Source: a candidate division Hyd24-12 bacterium UBA5074 (GTDB lineage: Bacteria; Fermentibacterota; Fermentibacteria; Fermentibacterales; Fermentibacteraceae). From it: a DNA stretch of 60,523 bases. The stretch spans positions 471 through 60,993 of the forward strand of contig DIAQ01000108.1 of assembly GCA_002414865.1 (NCBI GenBank). The letters run 5' to 3'. Below are positions 40,689 to 57,711 of the stretch, piece by piece; positions within the stretch are counted from its first letter, which is position 1, and each line of letters opens with the position of its first letter. Both the position numbers and the translations under genes were made by a program. The notes beneath the pieces were generated by a model. That model was not told the origin of the DNA. It saw nothing but the letters and a program-made list of their open reading frames with translations, and ran no database searches.

Positions 40689-42347
40689 ATGATGCAGAAG
40701 ATCAGGATACTGCCGGACGAGATGGTCAACCTCATCGCCGCGGGCGAGGTGGTGGAGAGGCCGGCCTCCGTCGCCAAGGAGCTCCTCGAGAACTCCATCG
40801 ATGCCGGCGCCTCCGCCGTGGAGATAGAGGCCGAGCTGGGCGGGAAGCGGTCGATCACGGTGAGGGACGACGGCTGCGGCATGTCCCGCCAGGACCTCCT
40901 CATGTCGGTGCAGAGGCACGCGACGAGCAAGCTCGACAAGCCTTCGCAGCTCTCCGCGATCGAGTCTCTGGGGTTCAGGGGCGAAGCCCTGCCGAGCATT
41001 GCCGCCGTGTCGCGGATGACCATTCTGACATGTGATGGCGAAGGTGAAGCCTGCAGGCTGGAGATCGAGGGAGGGGTCATGCGCGATCTCTCTCCCGCGG
41101 CCAGGACCCGGGGGACCACCGTCACGGTCACCAGCCTGTTCTTCAACCAGCCCGCAAGGAGGAAATTCCTCAGGTCGGAGGAGACCGAGCTGTCCTGGAT
41201 GGAACGGCATGTCACCGCGCTGGCGTTCGCCCACTGCAGCATTTCAGTGCGCTTCGTCCACGGAGGAGCCGTGCTGTTCGACCTGCCGGCCTCGTCGCTG
41301 GAGGAGCGGCTCCGCCGGAGGTTCCAGCTCGGCGACTCCGAGGCTGTGCTCTCGGCAGCCGCCGTCGACGGAGGAACCGCTGCCGAGCTGCTGGTCTGCC
41401 CCGACAGGAGATACGCGGGGAGGACGCACGGCTACTGCACCGTCAACGGGAGGCCCGTGAACTCCAGGGCTGTCATGGCGCCTGTCGAGGCAGCCTTCTC
41501 CGGACCCGCGGGGCATGCCCTGGGCATATGCCGAGTATCGCTCCCTCGGTCGGAGCTCGATGTGAACGTCCATCCCGCAAAGCTGGAGGTCAGGTTCAGG
41601 AATCCTTCACTCGTGTCCAGCGTCGTGGAGGAGGCGTGCAGGACAGCCTCAGGAGGCAGGAGGGCGGCTCTCGCAGCCGGGTCGGCCTTTCAGTATCAGG
41701 CCGCTCAGCCATCCCGGCAGCCTGCGGCCGAAGCTGTCCAGGCTGCGCTCGACCTGATGGCCCCGACAGCCGTCCAGAGCCCGCAGACGGGATACGCCCA
41801 TGTGCTCCAGGCAGGGAGGAGCTACCTGGTGGCCTCCGTGCAGGGCGGCATAGTCGTGGTCGACCAGCATGCGGCGCACGAGAGGATCCTCTTCGAAGCC
41901 CTGGCCAGGAGACTGGAGGCGGAAGGCGAGGCCCCGAGCCAGCGGCTGCTGCTGCCGGAGACGATCGAGCTCGACCGCCGGTCGGAAGCGTCCCTCAGGG
42001 AGTACGACAGCGTGATCTCCCGCGCAGGCTTCGAGTTCTCGATCTCGGGCGGGACGCTCACGCTGACCGCTGTCCCCGAGGGCGTCAGCCATGCCGTGGA
42101 ATCCCTCCTCGAAGTCCTCGCCTCTCTGAACGACCCGGTCCACGCGGCCCTGCCGCCGCTCGAGCAGATTGCCGCCGCAGCGGCATGTGCTGGAGCCGTG
42201 AAATTCGGGGACGCCCTCTCGCCCGCAGAGGCGCACGCTCTCCTGGAAGCGCTCTTCTCCACCGCCGAGCCGTTCCGCTGCCCCCATGGCAGACCAACTC
42301 TCGTCGAGATCTCCTTCGACGAGCTGTCACGGAGGTTCGGGAGGTGA
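40689..42347 (+). CDS. mutL: DNA mismatch repair endonuclease MutL
   Basis: IAAGEVVERPASVAKELLENSIDAG, DDGCG, HATSK, LGFRGEAL, DVNVHPAK, DQHAAHERILFE, CPHGRP. Confidence 0.97.
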   Translation: MMQKIRILPDEMVNLIAAGEVVERPASVAKELLENSIDAGASAVEIEAELGGKRSITVRDDGCGMSRQDLLMSVQRHATSKLDKPSQLSAIESLGFRGEALPSIAAVSRMTILTCDGEGEACRLEIEGGVMRDLSPAARTRGTTVTVTSLFFNQPARRKFLRSEETELSWMERHVTALAFAHCSISVRFVHGGAVLFDLPASSLEERLRRRFQLGDSEAVLSAAAVDGGTAAELLVCPDRRYAGRTHGYCTVNGRPVNSRAVMAPVEAAFSGPAGHALGICRVSLPRSELDVNVHPAKLEVRFRNPSLVSSVVEEACRTASGGRRAALAAGSAFQYQAAQPSRQPAAEAVQAALDLMAPTAVQSPQTGYAHVLQAGRSYLVASVQGGIVVVDQHAAHERILFEALARRLEAEGEAPSQRLLLPETIELDRRSEASLREYDSVISRAGFEFSISGGTLTLTAVPEGVSHAVESLLEVLASLNDPVHAALPPLEQIAAAAACAGAVKFGDALSPAEAHALLEALFSTAEPFRCPHGRPTLVEISFDELSRRFGR

Positions 42348-43249
42348 GCGGCGGAGGGATTCTGGTGATCACGGGCTGCACCGCGTCGGGCAAGACGGCC
42401 GCCCTCGAGATCCTGGCCTCCCGCCTCGACCTGGAAGTGGTGAGCGCAGATTCGAGGCAGATCTACAGGGGGATGGACATAGGCACGGCCAAGCCCTCGA
42501 GGGATCTCCTGGGGCGCGTGCCCCACCATGTCCTGGACATCATGGACCCAGACGGCGTCTACTCCGCGGGCCGGTTCGCGGAGGATGCCGCCTCGGCGAT
42601 AGAGAGCGTGAGAGCCCGGGGCAGGACGCCGCTGGTCGTCGGCGGCACGGTCCTGTATCTGCTCGCACTCCTGGGGGGGCTGGACGATCTGCCCCGCGCC
42701 CATCCCGCAGCGAGGAGGGTGCTTCTCGACATGGAATCCTCGGACCCCGGCTGCCTGCTCAGGATGCTCGCGCGGCTCGACCCGGTCTCGGCGGTCAGGC
42801 TGGGTTCCAGGGACCTCGTGAGGATCCTGAGAGCCCTCGAGATAAGCCTGGTGGCCGGAATGCCCGCTTCGACCCTGCGAAAGGGGGGCTCCGGAGGCGT
42901 CAGGAGCAGGATCCTCGTCCTGGACCCCGGACCTGCGGAGCTGCGCAGGCGGATCTCGGCGCGGACGGGCCTTATGCTCGAACAGGGGCTCGTGGAGGAG
43001 ACGCGGACGCTACTCGAAGCGGGGTTCGGCAGGAGGAGCGCCCCCGGGAGCACGCTGGGCTACGACAGGGTGCTGGACATGCTCGAAGGAACCCTGGATG
43101 CAACGGAACTCCAGGACAGGATAGAGGCTGATACGTGGAGGTTTGCCAGGAGGCAGCGGAACATGATGCGCAGGCTGGGCCCGGTCTCCACCTGGGACGG
43201 GCTCGACGCCGGGCCGGTTCTGGCCGCCCTCGCCGAACTGGAGGAATGA
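42344..43249 (+). CDS. miaA: tRNA dimethylallyltransferase
   Basis: ITGCTASGKT, VSADSRQIYRGMDIGTAKP, VGGTVLY, TLGY, FARRQ. Confidence 0.95.
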   Translation: MSGGGILVITGCTASGKTAALEILASRLDLEVVSADSRQIYRGMDIGTAKPSRDLLGRVPHHVLDIMDPDGVYSAGRFAEDAASAIESVRARGRTPLVVGGTVLYLLALLGGLDDLPRAHPAARRVLLDMESSDPGCLLRMLARLDPVSAVRLGSRDLVRILRALEISLVAGMPASTLRKGGSGGVRSRILVLDPGPAELRRRISARTGLMLEQGLVEETRTLLEAGFGRRSAPGSTLGYDRVLDMLEGTLDATELQDRIEADTWRFARRQRNMMRRLGPVSTWDGLDAGPVLAALAELEE

Positions 43250-43250
43250 G

Positions 43251-44498
43251 ATGCAGAAGAGCACCGAGTCGGTCACAGAGCATCTTCCCCTCGAGGAGAT
43301 AAGGGTGACATCGATCAGCTGCCTCGACCCCCCGGTGGAGTGGGAGGGGGAGGCCGAGGACGGCGAGCCGCCCCTCCCGCCGGTGCTGGTGGAGGAGGAC
43401 GACCGCTACTCGCTTCTGGTTCATCACCGGACCGTCTGGAGCGCCAGGGCGTCGTCGAAGCTGGCCGTGCGCTCGCTCGTGGTCAGGAGCGCGGTCCACA
43501 TACCCATCGCCCACAAGACGGTCAGGAACTGCCTCGAGGAGGCCCTTCTCTTCGATGGGCTGCTCAGGACCGGCATTGTCCCGAACAGGAGCCGGCTGGC
43601 TGAGATGCTCGGATTCTCGAGGGCACGCATCACTCAGGTCCTCAACATCCTGAAGCTGCCTCTCGCGATCCGGCAGAGGCTCCTCCTGGCCGACCACGTG
43701 AGCGAATTCCAGCTCCGTCCACTGGTCAAGCTCGACGACGAGAAAAGGCAGCTCTCCGCCTTCTCCAGGCTGATGGTCGACAAGCTCACAGGCAGGCAGA
43801 TGGCCCTTTTCGCCGCCTCGGAGGAAGCCGGCGGGGAGCCCGCCGGAGAGCTCTCGGACATCGAGCGCATCATGGCCGCCCCTGTGGAGGGGCATTCCGC
43901 GGCACCTGCCGAACCTGCCTCCTCCGCAGCGCCCGAGGATGTCATGCCGGCGAGGGAGGCCAGGGAGCCGAAGGAGCCGGAAGCCCGGATCGAGGCGCCC
44001 CACGCCCCCCAGCCCCGTCCCCAGCCTCCCCAGCCACAGGTGGATGTGGCGGCCTCCGTCGTCGCTCAGAGACAGTCCTATTCAAGGGTGAAGCAGCTCC
44101 TGGAGTCTCTGGGCACCCTGCGGGAGGCCGACTGGCAGGAGGCCGCCGCGAGGCTCAAGGCCACCAGGGAGGAGATGATCCTCATGGAGGGCCTTTCCCT
44201 GCTGAGAAAGGGGTTGTACGAGAGGGCCGTGGAGACGCTTCTGAGGTGCGTCAACCTGGTTCCCGACAACGCCTCCGCCTATTACTACATCGGACGGTGC
44301 TACAACCTCCTGGAGGAGCCCGGGAGGGCGGAGGAGCACCTCAGGAAAGCCTGCGAGATCATCCCGGACGATCCCGAGTTCCTCTCCGAGCTGGCCATAG
44401 TCCTGGAGAAGCAGAACCGCCAGTCCGAAGCCGCCAGCTTCTATCGGAAGGCCGGTGCCCTTCGTAAATCCGCAAATGCCAAGCCGAGGCGCACATGA
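43251..44498 (+). CDS. ParB/Spo0J-like HTH protein with degenerate N-terminal domain and C-terminal TPRs
   Basis: LEEALLF...LAEMLGFSRARITQVLNILKLP (ParB HTH core); Pro/Glu linker; TPRs ASAYYYIGRCY and PEFLSELAIV. Confidence 0.75.
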   Translation: MQKSTESVTEHLPLEEIRVTSISCLDPPVEWEGEAEDGEPPLPPVLVEEDDRYSLLVHHRTVWSARASSKLAVRSLVVRSAVHIPIAHKTVRNCLEEALLFDGLLRTGIVPNRSRLAEMLGFSRARITQVLNILKLPLAIRQRLLLADHVSEFQLRPLVKLDDEKRQLSAFSRLMVDKLTGRQMALFAASEEAGGEPAGELSDIERIMAAPVEGHSAAPAEPASSAAPEDVMPAREAREPKEPEARIEAPHAPQPRPQPPQPQVDVAASVVAQRQSYSRVKQLLESLGTLREADWQEAAARLKATREEMILMEGLSLLRKGLYERAVETLLRCVNLVPDNASAYYYIGRCYNLLEEPGRAEEHLRKACEIIPDDPEFLSELAIVLEKQNRQSEAASFYRKAGALRKSANAKPRRT

Positions 44499-46084
44499 AG
44501 TGCCGCCGTGCACTCCTCGCCTCAGCGGTCCTGCTGGCGGGAGCGTCCTGTGCGAGGATGGCCTCGCCTGACGGCGGCCCCCCTGACGAGACGCCCCCTG
44601 CCATCCTGTCCGTGAGCCCCGAGCCGGGGGCCGGCCTGCCCGGGCTGGACGAGATCAGCATCATCTGGGACGAGCGCCTCGAGGAGGCCTCGGTCGAGGT
44701 GTCGCTCTACCCTCCCATGGGCAGCAGGCTGGCGATCGAAGGCAGGAAGATCACCGTGAAGCTCGACCAGCCCATCGGCGGTGCGTGCCTGGTCCTCCAT
44801 CTGCCCGGCACTCTCTCGGACCTGCGGGGCAACGAGACCGGAGCGCCCGTGGATCTCGCCTGGGCAGGAGGGGACAGCTTCCCGGAATCCGCCGTCACGA
44901 TGACCTTTCAGCGCCAGGGAGGCGGGGTTCCCGGATCGAGGATCATCGCCGACATACTCGGTCCGGGAGGGCTGCTGGAGAGGAGGACCTCCGCGGACAC
45001 GTCCTTCGCAGCGGTGGCGGGATGGCTCGAGCCCGGGGAGTACCGCCTCGTGTGCTACGAAGACCCCGACTTCAGCTTCAGCTGGGAGCCCTCCGTCGAG
45101 GCCGGGCTGGACACTCTGGTGAGCCTCCGGTCGAGAGACACGCTGGAGCTGGCTCTCACTCTCTCGGTGATCGACACCATCGGCCCTCTGCTCTCGTCCG
45201 CGGACAGGCTGGGCCCCCATCTCGCAAGGCTCTCTTTCAACGAGCAGATCGAGCTTCCGGAGCAGTCGTCGACCGCCTTTTCCCTGGAGGATTCGACCGG
45301 GGCGGCTGTGCCGGTGCTGGGAACGTGGATGGCTCTCACCCGGGAGCAGAGATCAGTGGAGCTCGCCTTCGCCGGAGATCCGGCGCCGCCTCTCTCGGTC
45401 CGGGTCGAGTCCGTCCGAGACATGGTCGGGAACCGGTCGGCCGGAGATTCCCTCGAGGTCGAGGAGCCCGACAGCCTCCGCTCGGATTCCCTCGCGATCA
45501 GGAGCTTCTTCCCCGCCCCCGGAGCCGAGGGCGTATCCCCTTCGGGCCCGTATTCCATCGGCTTCTCGGGTTACGTGGACCCGGACTCGCTCTCCAGCCG
45601 CCTCTCGGTCGTGAGGATTTCCGATGGATCGACCACGCCGGGCGTCATCGAGAGGGAGGATGGCAGGACATTCCTGTTCACCCCCGAGCACGAGCTGATG
45701 GGCGAGGAGCAGTACAGGATCCAGCTGGACAGCGGCCTCGTGAGCCTGGACGGCGACAGCCTGGGCTCCTTCGCATGGACCTTCGTGCCCGCATGGGGAG
45801 CAGAGCCTGGGTCGATCTCGGGCTTCGCGCGAGGAGCCTCCGCGATGACGCTGGAGATAGCCCCCGCAGGCAGCTCCGGGACGCCCATCATGTTCGGCGT
45901 GTCCGGCGGGCGCTACGAGGTCGGACCCATCCCTGCAGGGAGGTATACGGTCGTCGCATACTGCGACTCGAACGGGAACGGTGTGTGGGATGGCTTCGGC
46001 GAGCCATACGGTGCCGCCCCCGGCGTCATACAGGTTCGCCCGGGAGTGGTCACCGAAGGGGTGGACATTGAGATTCTCCCCTGA
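44495..46084 (+). CDS. Ig-like (Big_5-type) domain lipoprotein
   Basis: Lipobox GASC; CARMASPDGGPPDETPP motif typical of FCB Ig-like lipoproteins; repeated PAPGAEGV and DLRGN/DMVGN beta domains. Confidence 0.75.
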   Translation: MKCRRALLASAVLLAGASCARMASPDGGPPDETPPAILSVSPEPGAGLPGLDEISIIWDERLEEASVEVSLYPPMGSRLAIEGRKITVKLDQPIGGACLVLHLPGTLSDLRGNETGAPVDLAWAGGDSFPESAVTMTFQRQGGGVPGSRIIADILGPGGLLERRTSADTSFAAVAGWLEPGEYRLVCYEDPDFSFSWEPSVEAGLDTLVSLRSRDTLELALTLSVIDTIGPLLSSADRLGPHLARLSFNEQIELPEQSSTAFSLEDSTGAAVPVLGTWMALTREQRSVELAFAGDPAPPLSVRVESVRDMVGNRSAGDSLEVEEPDSLRSDSLAIRSFFPAPGAEGVSPSGPYSIGFSGYVDPDSLSSRLSVVRISDGSTTPGVIEREDGRTFLFTPEHELMGEEQYRIQLDSGLVSLDGDSLGSFAWTFVPAWGAEPGSISGFARGASAMTLEIAPAGSSGTPIMFGVSGGRYEVGPIPAGRYTVVAYCDSNGNGVWDGFGEPYGAAPGVIQVRPGVVTEGVDIEILP

Positions 46085-55555: not shown

Positions 55556-56418
55556 CGGGGCGCATCCACGCGGGCTACGCAGTCATCGCCGGGGCCGCCA
55601 ACAGCGGAAAATCGAGCCTTATCAACGCCATGACTGGTTTCGCCCTGTCCCCGGTCACGGAGCACCCCGGCACGACCAGGGTCCCCGTGACCGCCGTGCT
55701 CTCCCGTCCGGACGTTCAGATCTGCCTGATAGACACCCCTCCGATGGAGTTCGCCGCCACACTCGACCTCATGAGCTGGATGGATGCCCTCTGTCTGGTC
55801 GTGGACTGCAGGAGCATCGAGACGGGTCTGGCATCCCGGGATGTGGACAGGCTGATGGAAGAGTTCTCGGAAAGGCCTGTCGTGCTGGCGCTCACCCACT
55901 CGGACCACTTCCCCGGTGCGCTGCACAGGGCGCTCGCGGTCAGGGCCGGGTATCTGCGGGAGTTCGCCGCCGTATGTCCGGTCTGTCCGCTGCTGGGCTC
56001 GGGAGTCGACGACCTGCGCAAGGCGATTTCCGCGCAGCTCCCGGTCAGGAGGAGGCTGTTCCCGGAGGACTGCAGGACGCTCCACTCCGACAGGTTCCTC
56101 GTCTCGGAGATGATCAGGACGCGCCTCTACGAGGTGCTGCCGGCCGAGATAGCCTCCGGCACGGCTGTGCAGATAGAGGAGTATTCGCTGCGCGACGCCA
56201 AGACCTATGTGCGCGCCAACCTGCTGGTCGCCAGACACAGCAGCAAGGGCATGGTGATAGGCCGCAAGGGCCAGACTCTCCAGCGGATCGTCGAGACCAC
56301 CGTCAGGAGCGCCCTGGATCTCCTCGGGAGGCAGATCAGCCTCGACCTGTGGGTCAAGGTCAGGGAATCCTGGCCCGACAACCCCCACGACCTTCTGGAA
56401 TTCGGCTATGTCCGCTGA
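55552..56418 (+). CDS. era: Era-family GTPase with divergent G motifs and KH domain
   Basis: AGAANSGKSS, PGTTR, DTPP, THSD, SEMIR, KGMVIGRKG, LDLWVKVRESW, EFGY. Confidence 0.8.
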   Translation: MTGRIHAGYAVIAGAANSGKSSLINAMTGFALSPVTEHPGTTRVPVTAVLSRPDVQICLIDTPPMEFAATLDLMSWMDALCLVVDCRSIETGLASRDVDRLMEEFSERPVVLALTHSDHFPGALHRALAVRAGYLREFAAVCPVCPLLGSGVDDLRKAISAQLPVRRRLFPEDCRTLHSDRFLVSEMIRTRLYEVLPAEIASGTAVQIEEYSLRDAKTYVRANLLVARHSSKGMVIGRKGQTLQRIVETTVRSALDLLGRQISLDLWVKVRESWPDNPHDLLEFGYVR

Positions 56419-57154
56419 AGCCTGCAGGATCTCCCTCGAAGCCTTCGAAGGGCCCCTCGACCTCCTGCTCTATCTCATAAGACGCGAGGAGCTGGACATC
56501 CGCGAGGTCTCCGTCGCGCGGGTCGCCGACCAGTACCTCGAATACGTGCGGCAGGCCGAGGAGCTGGACCTGGACGTCGCGAGCGAATACCTCGTGATGG
56601 CCGCCACCCTTGCCGGCATCAAGAGCAGGGCGCTGCTGCCCGGAAGGGGTGATCTCCAGGAGGAGCAGGAGAGTTCCGCAGAGGAGCTCCTGAGGCAGCT
56701 CGAGCTCTACAAGGCGTTCAGGGAGGTGGCCGAGGAGCTCCGCGACAGCGAGGCGACCTGGCGGAACGCCTTCCCGGCCCCTGGCGAGAGGGAGCGATGG
56801 TCCGCCGAGAGCCCGGTACGGCTCGCCGGGCAATACACGATCGTCGACCTCCTGGAAGCCCTCGAAGAGCTGTCTGCCGAAGCCGCGCCGGAAAGCTCCG
56901 AGACACTCGAGAGGCCCAGGCTGACAATAGCGTCGTGCATCTCCTCGATCTCGACATCGCTCGCCCCGGGCGGCTGGGTCCCCCTGGGGCAGATCGTCGG
57001 GGCAGGCTCGTCGAGGCTGAGGCTCGTGGGTTTCTTCGTGGCGATCCTCGAGCTCGTGAGGAGGGGATGGGTGTCCTTCAGCCAGAAGTCCCCGTTCGGC
57101 GAGCTGAGACTGCGCAGAACAGGGCGGTGGAGCGAGGAATGCTCGACAGGCTGA
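56408..57154 (+). CDS. scpA: Segregation and condensation protein A
   Basis: FEGPLDLLLYLI, SEYLVMAATL...KSRALLP, FVAILEL, FSQKSPFGE. Confidence 0.93.
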   Translation: MSAEACRISLEAFEGPLDLLLYLIRREELDIREVSVARVADQYLEYVRQAEELDLDVASEYLVMAATLAGIKSRALLPGRGDLQEEQESSAEELLRQLELYKAFREVAEELRDSEATWRNAFPAPGERERWSAESPVRLAGQYTIVDLLEALEELSAEAAPESSETLERPRLTIASCISSISTSLAPGGWVPLGQIVGAGSSRLRLVGFFVAILELVRRGWVSFSQKSPFGELRLRRTGRWSEECSTG

Positions 57155-57711
57155 CGAGGAGTATCGAGGCGCTGCTGTTCGCCTCGGACAGGCCGCTTTC
57201 CCTGCAGGACCTGTGCGAGCTGACGGGATGCGGTCCCGATGCGGCCGCAGGCGCTCTCGAGCAGCTGAGGGAGGCCTTCGAGGAGATCGGCTCATCCATC
57301 ATCCTGGCCGAGCTGGCGGGCGGCTGGAGGTTCGTGACCGATCCCTCCCTGGGCGACGTCGTTTCGCAGCTATTCGAGGACAGGAGGCCCGGGAAGCTCA
57401 GCAGGGCATCGATCGAGACGCTTGCGGTTATAGCCTACAACCAGCCCTGCACGAAGGCGGCGGTGGAGGCCATAAGGGGAGTGGACTGCGACAGCGCCGT
57501 GCGGTCCCTTCTCGAGAGAGGCCTCGTTAGGATCTGTGGCCGCCAGGAAACCGCGGGCAGGCCGCTCACCTATGCGACGACAGACCAGTTCCTCTCCTCC
57601 TTCGGGCTCCTGGACCTCGAACACCTCCCCCGGCGCAGGGAGATCGACGAGATACTCGCCTCCGGCCCTCCCGCAGAGGAATCCGGTGAGCTCTTCCCGC
57701 ACGAGGGATGA
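57139..57711 (+). CDS. scpB: Segregation and condensation protein B
   Basis: IEALLFAS, LSRASIETLAVIAYNQP, IRGVD, GRPLTYATT...FL. Confidence 0.94.
   Translation: MLDRLTRSIEALLFASDRPLSLQDLCELTGCGPDAAAGALEQLREAFEEIGSSIILAELAGGWRFVTDPSLGDVVSQLFEDRRPGKLSRASIETLAVIAYNQPCTKAAVEAIRGVDCDSAVRSLLERGLVRICGRQETAGRPLTYATTDQFLSSFGLLDLEHLPRRREIDEILASGPPAEESGELFPHEG

Follow-up and report, generated by a model that had tools for sequence, protein, structure and literature searches.

An orphan ParB-like protein with a degenerate nucleotide pocket and a tetratricopeptide-repeat tail in Fermentibacterota

ParB proteins are currently seen as DNA clamps that are gated by cytidine triphosphate (CTP). What, then, is the role of a ParB-like protein whose nucleotide pocket has degenerated and whose tail has been exchanged? 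This question is raised by a gene from the candidate division Hyd24-12 bacterium UBA5074 (phylum Fermentibacterota; assembly GCA_002414865.1), which lies in a 60,523-nucleotide stretch of contig DIAQ01000108.1 (positions 471 to 60,993, forward strand). This whole stretch is called the window in the following, and coordinates given without a contig name refer to it. A previous annotation made from the letters of the DNA alone, here called the sequence-only reading, had described the gene product as a ParB-like protein that lacks the arginine patch of the CTPase and is fused to tetratricopeptide repeats (TPRs), and we refer to it as ParB-TPR. The answer that we favour, with moderate confidence, is that ParB-TPR would be a nucleotide-independent, site-bound derivative of ParB and would use its TPR module either to bring in a partner or to self-associate.

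Domain architecture of ParB-TPR

The gene and its product comprise the following features, whereby HTH stands for the helix-turn-helix, AF2 for AlphaFold2, HMM for hidden Markov model and pLDDT for the predicted local distance difference test score.

43251..44498 (+): ParB-TPR coding sequence, 415 aa (open reading frame; Pfam HTH_ParB and TPR matches; homologues)
43251..43526 (+): degenerate ParB N-terminal (pseudo-CTPase) domain, residues 1-92 (profile/HMM alignments, AF2, Foldseek)
43422..43439 (+): HHRTVW at the position of Box II, the P-motif GERRxR (alignments)
43527..43805 (+): ParB-type HTH DNA-binding domain, residues 93-185 (Pfam PF17762, alignments to Noc and Spo0J)
43617..43661 (+): recognition-helix segment SRARITQVLNILKLP (near-invariant columns S123-P137, family alignments A1 and A2)
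43818..44045 (+): disordered acidic Pro/Ala-rich linker, residues 190-265 (AF2 pLDDT <50 over 195-252)
43857..43874 (+): DIERIM, an instance of the conserved linker motif D-[IL]-E-x-[LIM]-[MV] (loose regular expression)
44046..44477 (+): helical cap and three TPRs, residues 266-409 (Pfam TPR models, AF2, Foldseek)

The HTH is the best-conserved part of the protein. Pfam HTH_ParB (PF17762) reaches 38 bits over residues 93-185 (cut-off 22.6; expectation value, E, of 2e-9), and the residues S123-P137 constitute 15 consecutive positions that are invariant or nearly invariant across the phylum. In the N-terminal domain (residues 1-92) the motifs EHxPLEE, PPxEW, PPVL, (H/N)HxxxW, VVRSxVH, and AH are conserved. 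Here, Pfam ParB_N (PF02195) gave no match at E<=1 in the window protein, compared to 110 bits in the ParB that the same genome encodes elsewhere, and the NCBIfam models TIGR00180 (parB_part; 25.4 bits, cut-off 58.45) and TIGR04285 (Noc; 28 bits, cut-off 315) also remained below their thresholds. The fold itself is kept according to Foldseek and an AF2 model of the window protein, which was built with 24 family members. The model has a mean pLDDT of 84, with confident regions at residues 8-193 and 266-409 and a disordered stretch, rich in Pro, Glu, and Ala, at 195-252. When compared with the PDB by Foldseek, it most closely matches Noc and ParB structures with CDP or CTPgammaS (~200 columns, E 4e-7), and phmmer and family-profile searches of the PDB led to Noc (7NG0/7NFU), Bacillus subtilis Spo0J (6SDK), and Helicobacter pylori ParB (4UMK) over residues ~29-189. 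ParB-TPR shares with canonical ParB/Spo0J the N-domain fold and the ParB HTH, which are collinear over ~190 residues (profile E 7.5e-8 to 6SDK, Foldseek probability 1.00). The ParB homology put forward in the sequence-only reading is confirmed for both the HTH (Pfam, Noc/Spo0J alignments) and the N-domain fold (AF2, Foldseek).

The Pro/Glu/Ala linker and the three TPRs, which had also been noticed before, are present, and the TPRs, which are strongly conserved, replace the C-terminal dimerisation domain of ParB (PF23552), for which no Pfam match was obtained. The models TPR_1, TPR_2, TPR_8, TPR_11, and TPR_16 all exceed their Pfam cut-offs in the window protein (residues 311-405, E down to 5e-11). 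In the AF2 model a helical cap (residues 266-301) is followed by three TPRs at ~306-409 as helix pairs, with a pLDDT above 90 for the helices of 266-409. Foldseek matches to this region rank after those to ParB and Noc and include the designed protein CTPR3 (template modelling score >=0.9) and natural TPRs such as MamA. The third repeat, ELAIVLEKQxRxSEA, is almost invariant across the family. The linker is 83-157 residues long in relatives and carries the motif D-[IL]-E-x-[LIM]-[MV] in 96 of 113 members (loose regular expression, chance rate not estimated), within which AF2 places a short helix (205-208) at low confidence. The ParA-stimulating peptide LG-R/K-GL is absent from the ParB-TPR family (MAFFT alignment A3) and is present in the genome's own ParB as ALGRGLEALL. 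It might be that the HTH is only a relic and that the protein serves as a DNA-unrelated TPR scaffold or chaperone, as most relatives are listed in databases as “tetratricopeptide repeat protein” or “TolA-binding protein” and the site searches given below found no DNA site. However, an HTH that scores above its Pfam cut-off and is better conserved than any other region, including the 15 consecutive recognition-helix residues, makes this highly improbable.

The nucleotide pocket

In B. subtilis ParB, the pocket is lined by the motifs GE78RR and E111NLQR, and the substitution G77S or R80A alone abolishes CTP binding (PMC8494293). GxxR is near-invariant among all nucleoside triphosphate (NTP)-binding members of the ParB-CTPase fold (bioRxiv 10.1101/2025.10.10.680097). 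For ParB-TPR, three independent alignments were made, namely with HMMER against the three PDB ParBs, with hhalign against the genome's own ParB, and with MAFFT (A3), and all three aligned LLVHHRTVWSA to I(V/I)AGERRxRA. The equivalences to B. subtilis ParB are H58=G77, H59=E78, R60=R79, T61=R80, and W63=R82, and AF2 predicts a strand at residues 52-57, a loop at H58, and a helix starting at H59. A shifted register that would restore GxxR, and with it the CTP-binding residues, was considered and rejected, because the three alignments and the AF2 secondary structure agree with the unshifted register; moreover, R60 is an Asp in several members. The GxxR position reads (H/N)Hx(T/S) in 107/107 relatives, with neither a Gly at its first (0/107) nor an Arg at its fourth position (0/107), and HHRSFW, NHRTVW, NHDSFW, and similar variants occur among the 107 scored members. 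Thus far, the loss of the arginine patch agrees with the sequence-only reading, and the other nucleotide motifs are lost family-wide, too. The helix of Box I (C motif) is removed by a deletion of 8-10 residues (hhalign, MAFFT A3), AF2 shows no helix in residues 19-44, i.e., between the strands 14-18 and 45-49, and the C-motif loop GLLQP is replaced by P-x-x-P-P. Box III (ENLQR) is cut by a 7-residue deletion, which leaves the Asn (N93) as the sole residue retained; the position of the Glu varies.

The Myxococcus xanthus protein PadC binds CTP despite lacking ENLQR and the Glu (PMC8494293). ParB-TPR, unlike PadC, also lacks the Gly and the Arg of GxxR as well as the base-contacting helix. Since these elements are gone besides ENLQR, we strongly infer from the alignments that canonical NTP binding has been lost in the ParB-TPR family. 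The replaced N-domain positions are themselves invariant across the family (W31, H59, W63, A87, H88, N93); the domain is remodelled and not decaying. It might be possible that the remodelled pocket binds a new ligand, i.e., a metal, haem, or a non-canonical nucleotide, and still gates N-domain engagement and DNA binding, whereby the conserved His, Trp, and other residues H11, W31, H58/N, H59, W63, H83, H88, and N93 would form the binding site. The ParB/Srx-fold regulator SbnI, for example, binds haem. Positions that are invariant or nearly so instead of decayed would be in line with such a switch, as would the range of nucleotides bound within the fold, which takes in ATP and GTP besides CTP, and the co-variation of the pocket with the domain it is fused to (bioRxiv 10.1101/2025.10.10.680097). 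However, all tested NTP binders of the fold share GxxR, which is missing in every one of the 107 members, the base-contacting helix is deleted, and R60 is replaced by Asp in several members. We consider a new-ligand switch rather unlikely.

Distribution, partition genes, and chromosomal position

A word-indexed search yielded 169 homologues of the window protein, more than 160 of which are full-length (41-65% identity). All homologues with an organism name are labelled Fermentibacteria, Aegiribacteria, or Sabulitectum, and among the 120 homologues listed all combine HTH_ParB with TPRs at 39-65% identity. Copy numbers were counted with a profile of the N-terminal 192 residues over 70 Fermentibacterota species genomes. 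Exactly one copy was found in 65/70 genomes, in 46/46 high-quality genomes, and in 14/14 genera, which makes ParB-TPR a single-copy core gene of the phylum. Across 23 orthologous loci, its N-terminal half retains 46-70% identity, comparable to uvrC and mutL. An exhaustive phmmer search with residues 1-192 against 1.84 billion representative proteins resulted in nine family clusters (E <=1e-26); the next matches start from E ~1e-10 and cover the HTH alone, except for the Coatesbacteria protein P0126. The architecture of ParB HTH plus TPR, for which the sequence-only reading had proposed a search, was found outside the phylum in only two proteins, namely P0126 (514 aa) and its relative P0266, both from Coatesbacteria. 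The phylum-wide core-gene status had no counterpart in that reading, nor had the fixed position beside dif described below. No description of ParB-TPR fusions was found in the searched literature, including a 2025 survey of ParB-CTPase fusions.

The two Coatesbacteria proteins consist of a ParB N-domain, a ParB HTH, and TPRs, are collinear with the family over the HTH and all that follows up to the end of the TPR region (E 3e-25), and share the HTH signature NRSxLA...SR(A/S)RITQ...EFQLRPL. In contrast to the family, they have an intact C-motif helix and keep GERRF (IIGERRF in P0126), and P0126 scores 45.9 bits with ParB_N, which is above the Pfam cut-off, whereas the ParB-TPR family has no ParB_N match. 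Fused proteins thus occur both with the P-motif and without it, which fits an order of fusion first and pocket loss later; convergence is the alternative interpretation of these sequences. In the Coatesbacteria metagenome-assembled genome G070, ParB-TPR is the sole HTH_ParB match in the assembly (C65:18521-18826), and it may be the only ParB of its organism, assembly completeness aside. As a separate observation, the window genome encodes a third, small protein of 178 aa with only a ParB-type HTH (contig C90, L006:2415-2951, minus strand; …GVSRARVTQWLNLLELPE…). It resembles a large metagenomic family of 110-160-aa proteins with HTH_ParB only (P0125, P0127-P0131), which are the nearest non-family relatives of the ParB-TPR HTH.

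The sequence-only reading had noted that no parA is nearby and had suggested to look for a separate canonical parAB. There is indeed no ParA-type gene on the window contig, and the canonical genes are present on contig C75 in the order mnmG-rsmG-parA-parB. The encoded ParB has the motifs QPR, GERRLRA, and ENIQR, and a perfect parS, TGTTCCACGTGAAACA, is located where mnmG and rsmG meet, a short way upstream of parA-parB (C75:4537-4552, L005). It is the only perfect parS in the 2.16-Mb window assembly, which has 66% G+C. ParB_N was found in 68/70 Fermentibacterota genomes. ParB-TPR is an orphan paralogue alongside a separate canonical parAB, with a parS next to dnaA.

Compared to canonical ParB, ParB-TPR has no C-motif helix, GxxR, ENLQR, LG-R/K-GL, or ParB_C, and carries a TPR tail instead; it is adjacent to neither parA nor parS and lies near dif rather than ori. 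The recognition helix reads SRARITQVLN in ParB-TPR and SRPAVSNFMR in the genome's own ParB. The best match in sequence and structure is Noc, which is likewise a ParA-less chromosomal ParB paralogue that coexists with ParB. However, Noc keeps CTP binding and hydrolysis as well as the ParB C-terminal domain, its membrane binding is switched by CTP, and it occurs only in Firmicutes (Bacillota). KorB, VirB, and BisD are also orphan ParB homologues, which have been repurposed from segregation to transcription or silencing, but they are CTP-dependent clamps that retain GxxR (PMC11790492, PMC10653881), and none of them has TPRs. PadC resembles ParB-TPR in using a ParB/Srx domain as an adaptor, one that lacks ENLQR and has another residue in place of the catalytic Glu (PMC8494293), whereas it binds CTP, recruits ParA, and has no HTH; ParB-TPR lacks the phosphate-binding G and R and keeps the HTH. 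ParB-TPR departs from most defining features of ParB partition and of the CTPase switch, although the fold and the HTH are retained, and therefore we do not file it as a member of these systems.

In the closed genome G005, dnaA (1.456 Mb) and parB (1.464 Mb) lie 8 kb apart at an ori-type skew flip, and ParB-TPR (0.328 Mb) is located almost opposite. The GC skew of long contigs from five further genomes revealed a ter-type flip (+ to -) in 5/5, which is <=~50 kb from the gene in 4/5. A coarse 20-kb sampling of the skew had placed the terminus wrongly in G001 and G005, which was set right by the dif search. In four genomes, the cumulative-skew maximum is 21.6-25.0 kb from the ParB-TPR gene, and the sole AT-rich 13-mer common to these maxima is GATATTATGTAAA. 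It belongs to the pattern TGTCCGATAA-NN-GATATTATGTAAA, which we take to be a clear XerCD dif site because of its resemblance to the dif core of E. coli and Firmicutes (Bacillota). The pattern was matched in 56/70 genomes, of which 55 have it once and one, G031, has it twice, and the reversed pattern, used as a control, gave zero matches. The distance between gene and dif is 20.8-38.2 kb (median 21.7 kb) in 24/24 genomes with both on one contig, and the operon is transcribed toward dif in all 24. This proximity in Fermentibacterota is new here. Contigs C89 and C80 of the window genome are adjacent, the 3' end of the former being collinear with the 5' end of the latter. This places dif (C80:3882-3906) ~21.2 kb downstream of ParB-TPR and ~3.9 kb past the window end, across the C89-C80 junction. 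The 97-kb Coatesbacteria contig, which allowed the one comparison across phyla, did not reveal proximity to the terminus: its skew has no clear ter-type flip, and the site that most resembles dif is on a separate 3.7-kb contig. As a side observation, a second, inverted partial XerD arm (TTTACATAATATC) occurs 25-50 bp from dif in three genomes and forms a hairpin-like inverted repeat (G044:C19:157320-157380, G008:C1:225215-225290, G010:C24:145823-145900). This arm may have been left behind by a dif-targeting element that had integrated, or it may be a structural feature.

MatP-matS of E. coli and ZapT of Caulobacter are site-specific DNA binders with a separate protein-docking module that act at the terminus. 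By analogy, both poles of the replication map might be marked by ParB-family proteins, ParB-parS at the origin and a CTP-less ParB-TPR at the terminus. ParB-TPR would then bind sites in the dif region, and its TPRs would tether or organise the terminus, e.g., to the divisome, FtsK/XerCD, or the condensin ScpAB. The comparison is functional only, as no relationship in sequence or fold exists to MatP or ZapT and the likeness lies in the dif-adjacent position of the gene. We regard such an organiser as unlikely. Since the proximity to dif is a property of the whole gene block, a terminus-related role is compatible with it but not proven.

Operon, DNA sites, and the proposed mechanism

The neighbouring genes in the window are the following, whereby Ig stands for immunoglobulin.

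40689..42347 (+): mutL, first gene of the mutL-miaA-ParB-TPR-Big_5 run (open reading frame list, synteny)
42344..43249 (+): miaA, with a GTG start overlapping the mutL stop (open reading frame list; IPPT Pfam matches at orthologous loci)
44495..46084 (+): Big_5 Ig-like lipoprotein, 529 aa (Pfam Big_5, 65.6 bits)
56408..57711 (+): scpA and scpB (Pfam SMC_ScpA 102 bits, SMC_ScpB 177 bits)

The mutL-miaA pair precedes the gene and scpAB follows downstream, both as described in the sequence-only reading. The miaA stop lies 1 nt before the ATG of ParB-TPR (…GGAGGAATGAGATG…), with GGAGGA just upstream of the ATG. The junctions read GTGA (mutL/miaA), TGAGATG (miaA/ParB-TPR), and ATGA (ParB-TPR/Big_5, where the stop overlaps the start), and such overlapping or 1-nt junctions suggest translational coupling of all four genes (40689-46084). 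The order mutL-miaA-ParB-TPR-Big_5 lipoprotein-Fer4/nitroreductase is present at 23/23 loci from 13/14 genera. The genes scpA and scpB, which encode the condensin kleisin and its partner, are located 13 kb downstream in the same dif-proximal block. The remark that the gene occupies the slot of hfq in E. coli turned out to be a coincidence of gene order, as Hfq (PF17209) is not detectable in the 90%-complete window genome (G000), though the mutL-miaA pair is conserved.

The proposed coupling to the lipoprotein holds within the phylum but fails in the sole relative outside, i.e., in Coatesbacteria, where ParB-TPR has another gene neighbourhood. A functional link was considered and rejected: in Coatesbacteria, too, a lipoprotein of ~500 aa is encoded next to the gene, yet without homology (BLASTP, hhalign), and its presence is treated as coincidence. 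Besides, the coupling says little on function because a cytoplasmic protein is paired with an exported one. Across the loci the lipoprotein is 35-51% identical, below the N-terminal half of ParB-TPR, and in 24 orthologues the lipobox Cys is followed by a conserved GGPED. The mature N-terminus (44495-44560) follows C-A-(R/K)-x-x-(A/P)-P-(S/G)-GGP-(E/V)-D-x-x-PP, strictly in 24/24 orthologues.

Putative DNA sites were sought at several scales. Perfect palindromes of 12-18 bp across the window genome, palindromic half-sites common to the 23 orthologous loci, and near-palindromes of 14-18 bp shared by four dif regions of 80-100 kb and the window genome contigs all yielded nothing beyond GC-rich chance matches. 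These results bear on the possibility that ParB-TPR is a local transcription factor, i.e., that its HTH represses or activates the operon of mutL, miaA, ParB-TPR, the lipoprotein, and the nitroreductase, or a small regulon, whereby the TPRs would be a sensor or oligomerisation module, akin to TPR-containing regulators or to KorB/VirB minus the clamp. ParB-like transcription regulators do exist, namely KorB (PMC11790492) and VirB (PMC10653881), the recognition helix is invariant, and translation of the gene is tightly coupled to that of its neighbours in a conserved operon. However, neither the region upstream of mutL nor the operon nor the 23 orthologous loci contain a conserved palindrome or a motif that resembles an operator, the housekeeping flanks mutL and miaA have no obvious need of a dedicated regulator, and universal single-copy conservation at housekeeping level would be unusual for a local regulator. 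Overall, we assign a low probability to such a function.

The reading that we favour, a ParB derivative bound to its sites without nucleotide, would work as follows. ParB-TPR would be a ParB paralogue that has turned into a constitutive DNA-bound adaptor and needs no nucleotide. Its HTH would bind one or few specific chromosomal sites, like a classical site-bound protein. Without CTP, it could not close to a sliding clamp or spread. The missing function would be supplied by the TPRs, which may dock a partner protein or bind the acidic-hydrophobic linker motif of another copy, the latter yielding dimers or oligomers. The conserved His/Trp-rich N-domain would serve as an interaction or dimerisation surface and not as a nucleotide switch. 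The terminus region would be a candidate site of action because the gene is fixed ~21 kb from dif, opposite to the ori-proximal parABS.

Several points weigh against this proposal. The example of PadC implies that losing some of the motifs alone would not suffice to abolish CTP binding, and CTP independence is deduced from the sequence. The strong conservation of the N-domain with its new invariant residues could mean a new ligand rather than none. The searches around the gene, around dif, and over the genome revealed neither a conserved palindrome nor a repeated motif, and sequence-specific binding is thus unproven; no TPR partner was identified either. The linker motif is not docked onto the TPRs in the AF2 model, where its pLDDT is low. 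Finally, all genes of the conserved block share the dif-proximal position, which may therefore have nothing to do with ParB-TPR in particular.

To our knowledge, the known repurposed relatives Noc, KorB, VirB, BisD, and PadC have all kept nucleotide binding. In ParB-TPR, every nucleotide motif has been removed and TPRs stand in for the dimerisation domain, yet the protein is under housekeeping-level selection across a whole phylum. It therefore represents a natural test of the ParB scaffold without its switch, and the GERR-retaining relatives from Coatesbacteria supply a “before and after” pair. Domain surveys that are keyed on Pfam ParB_N or TIGR00180 would overlook the family. For Fermentibacterota, which have no cultured member, the fixed position of the gene by dif offers a concrete and testable idea on how the terminus may be organised.

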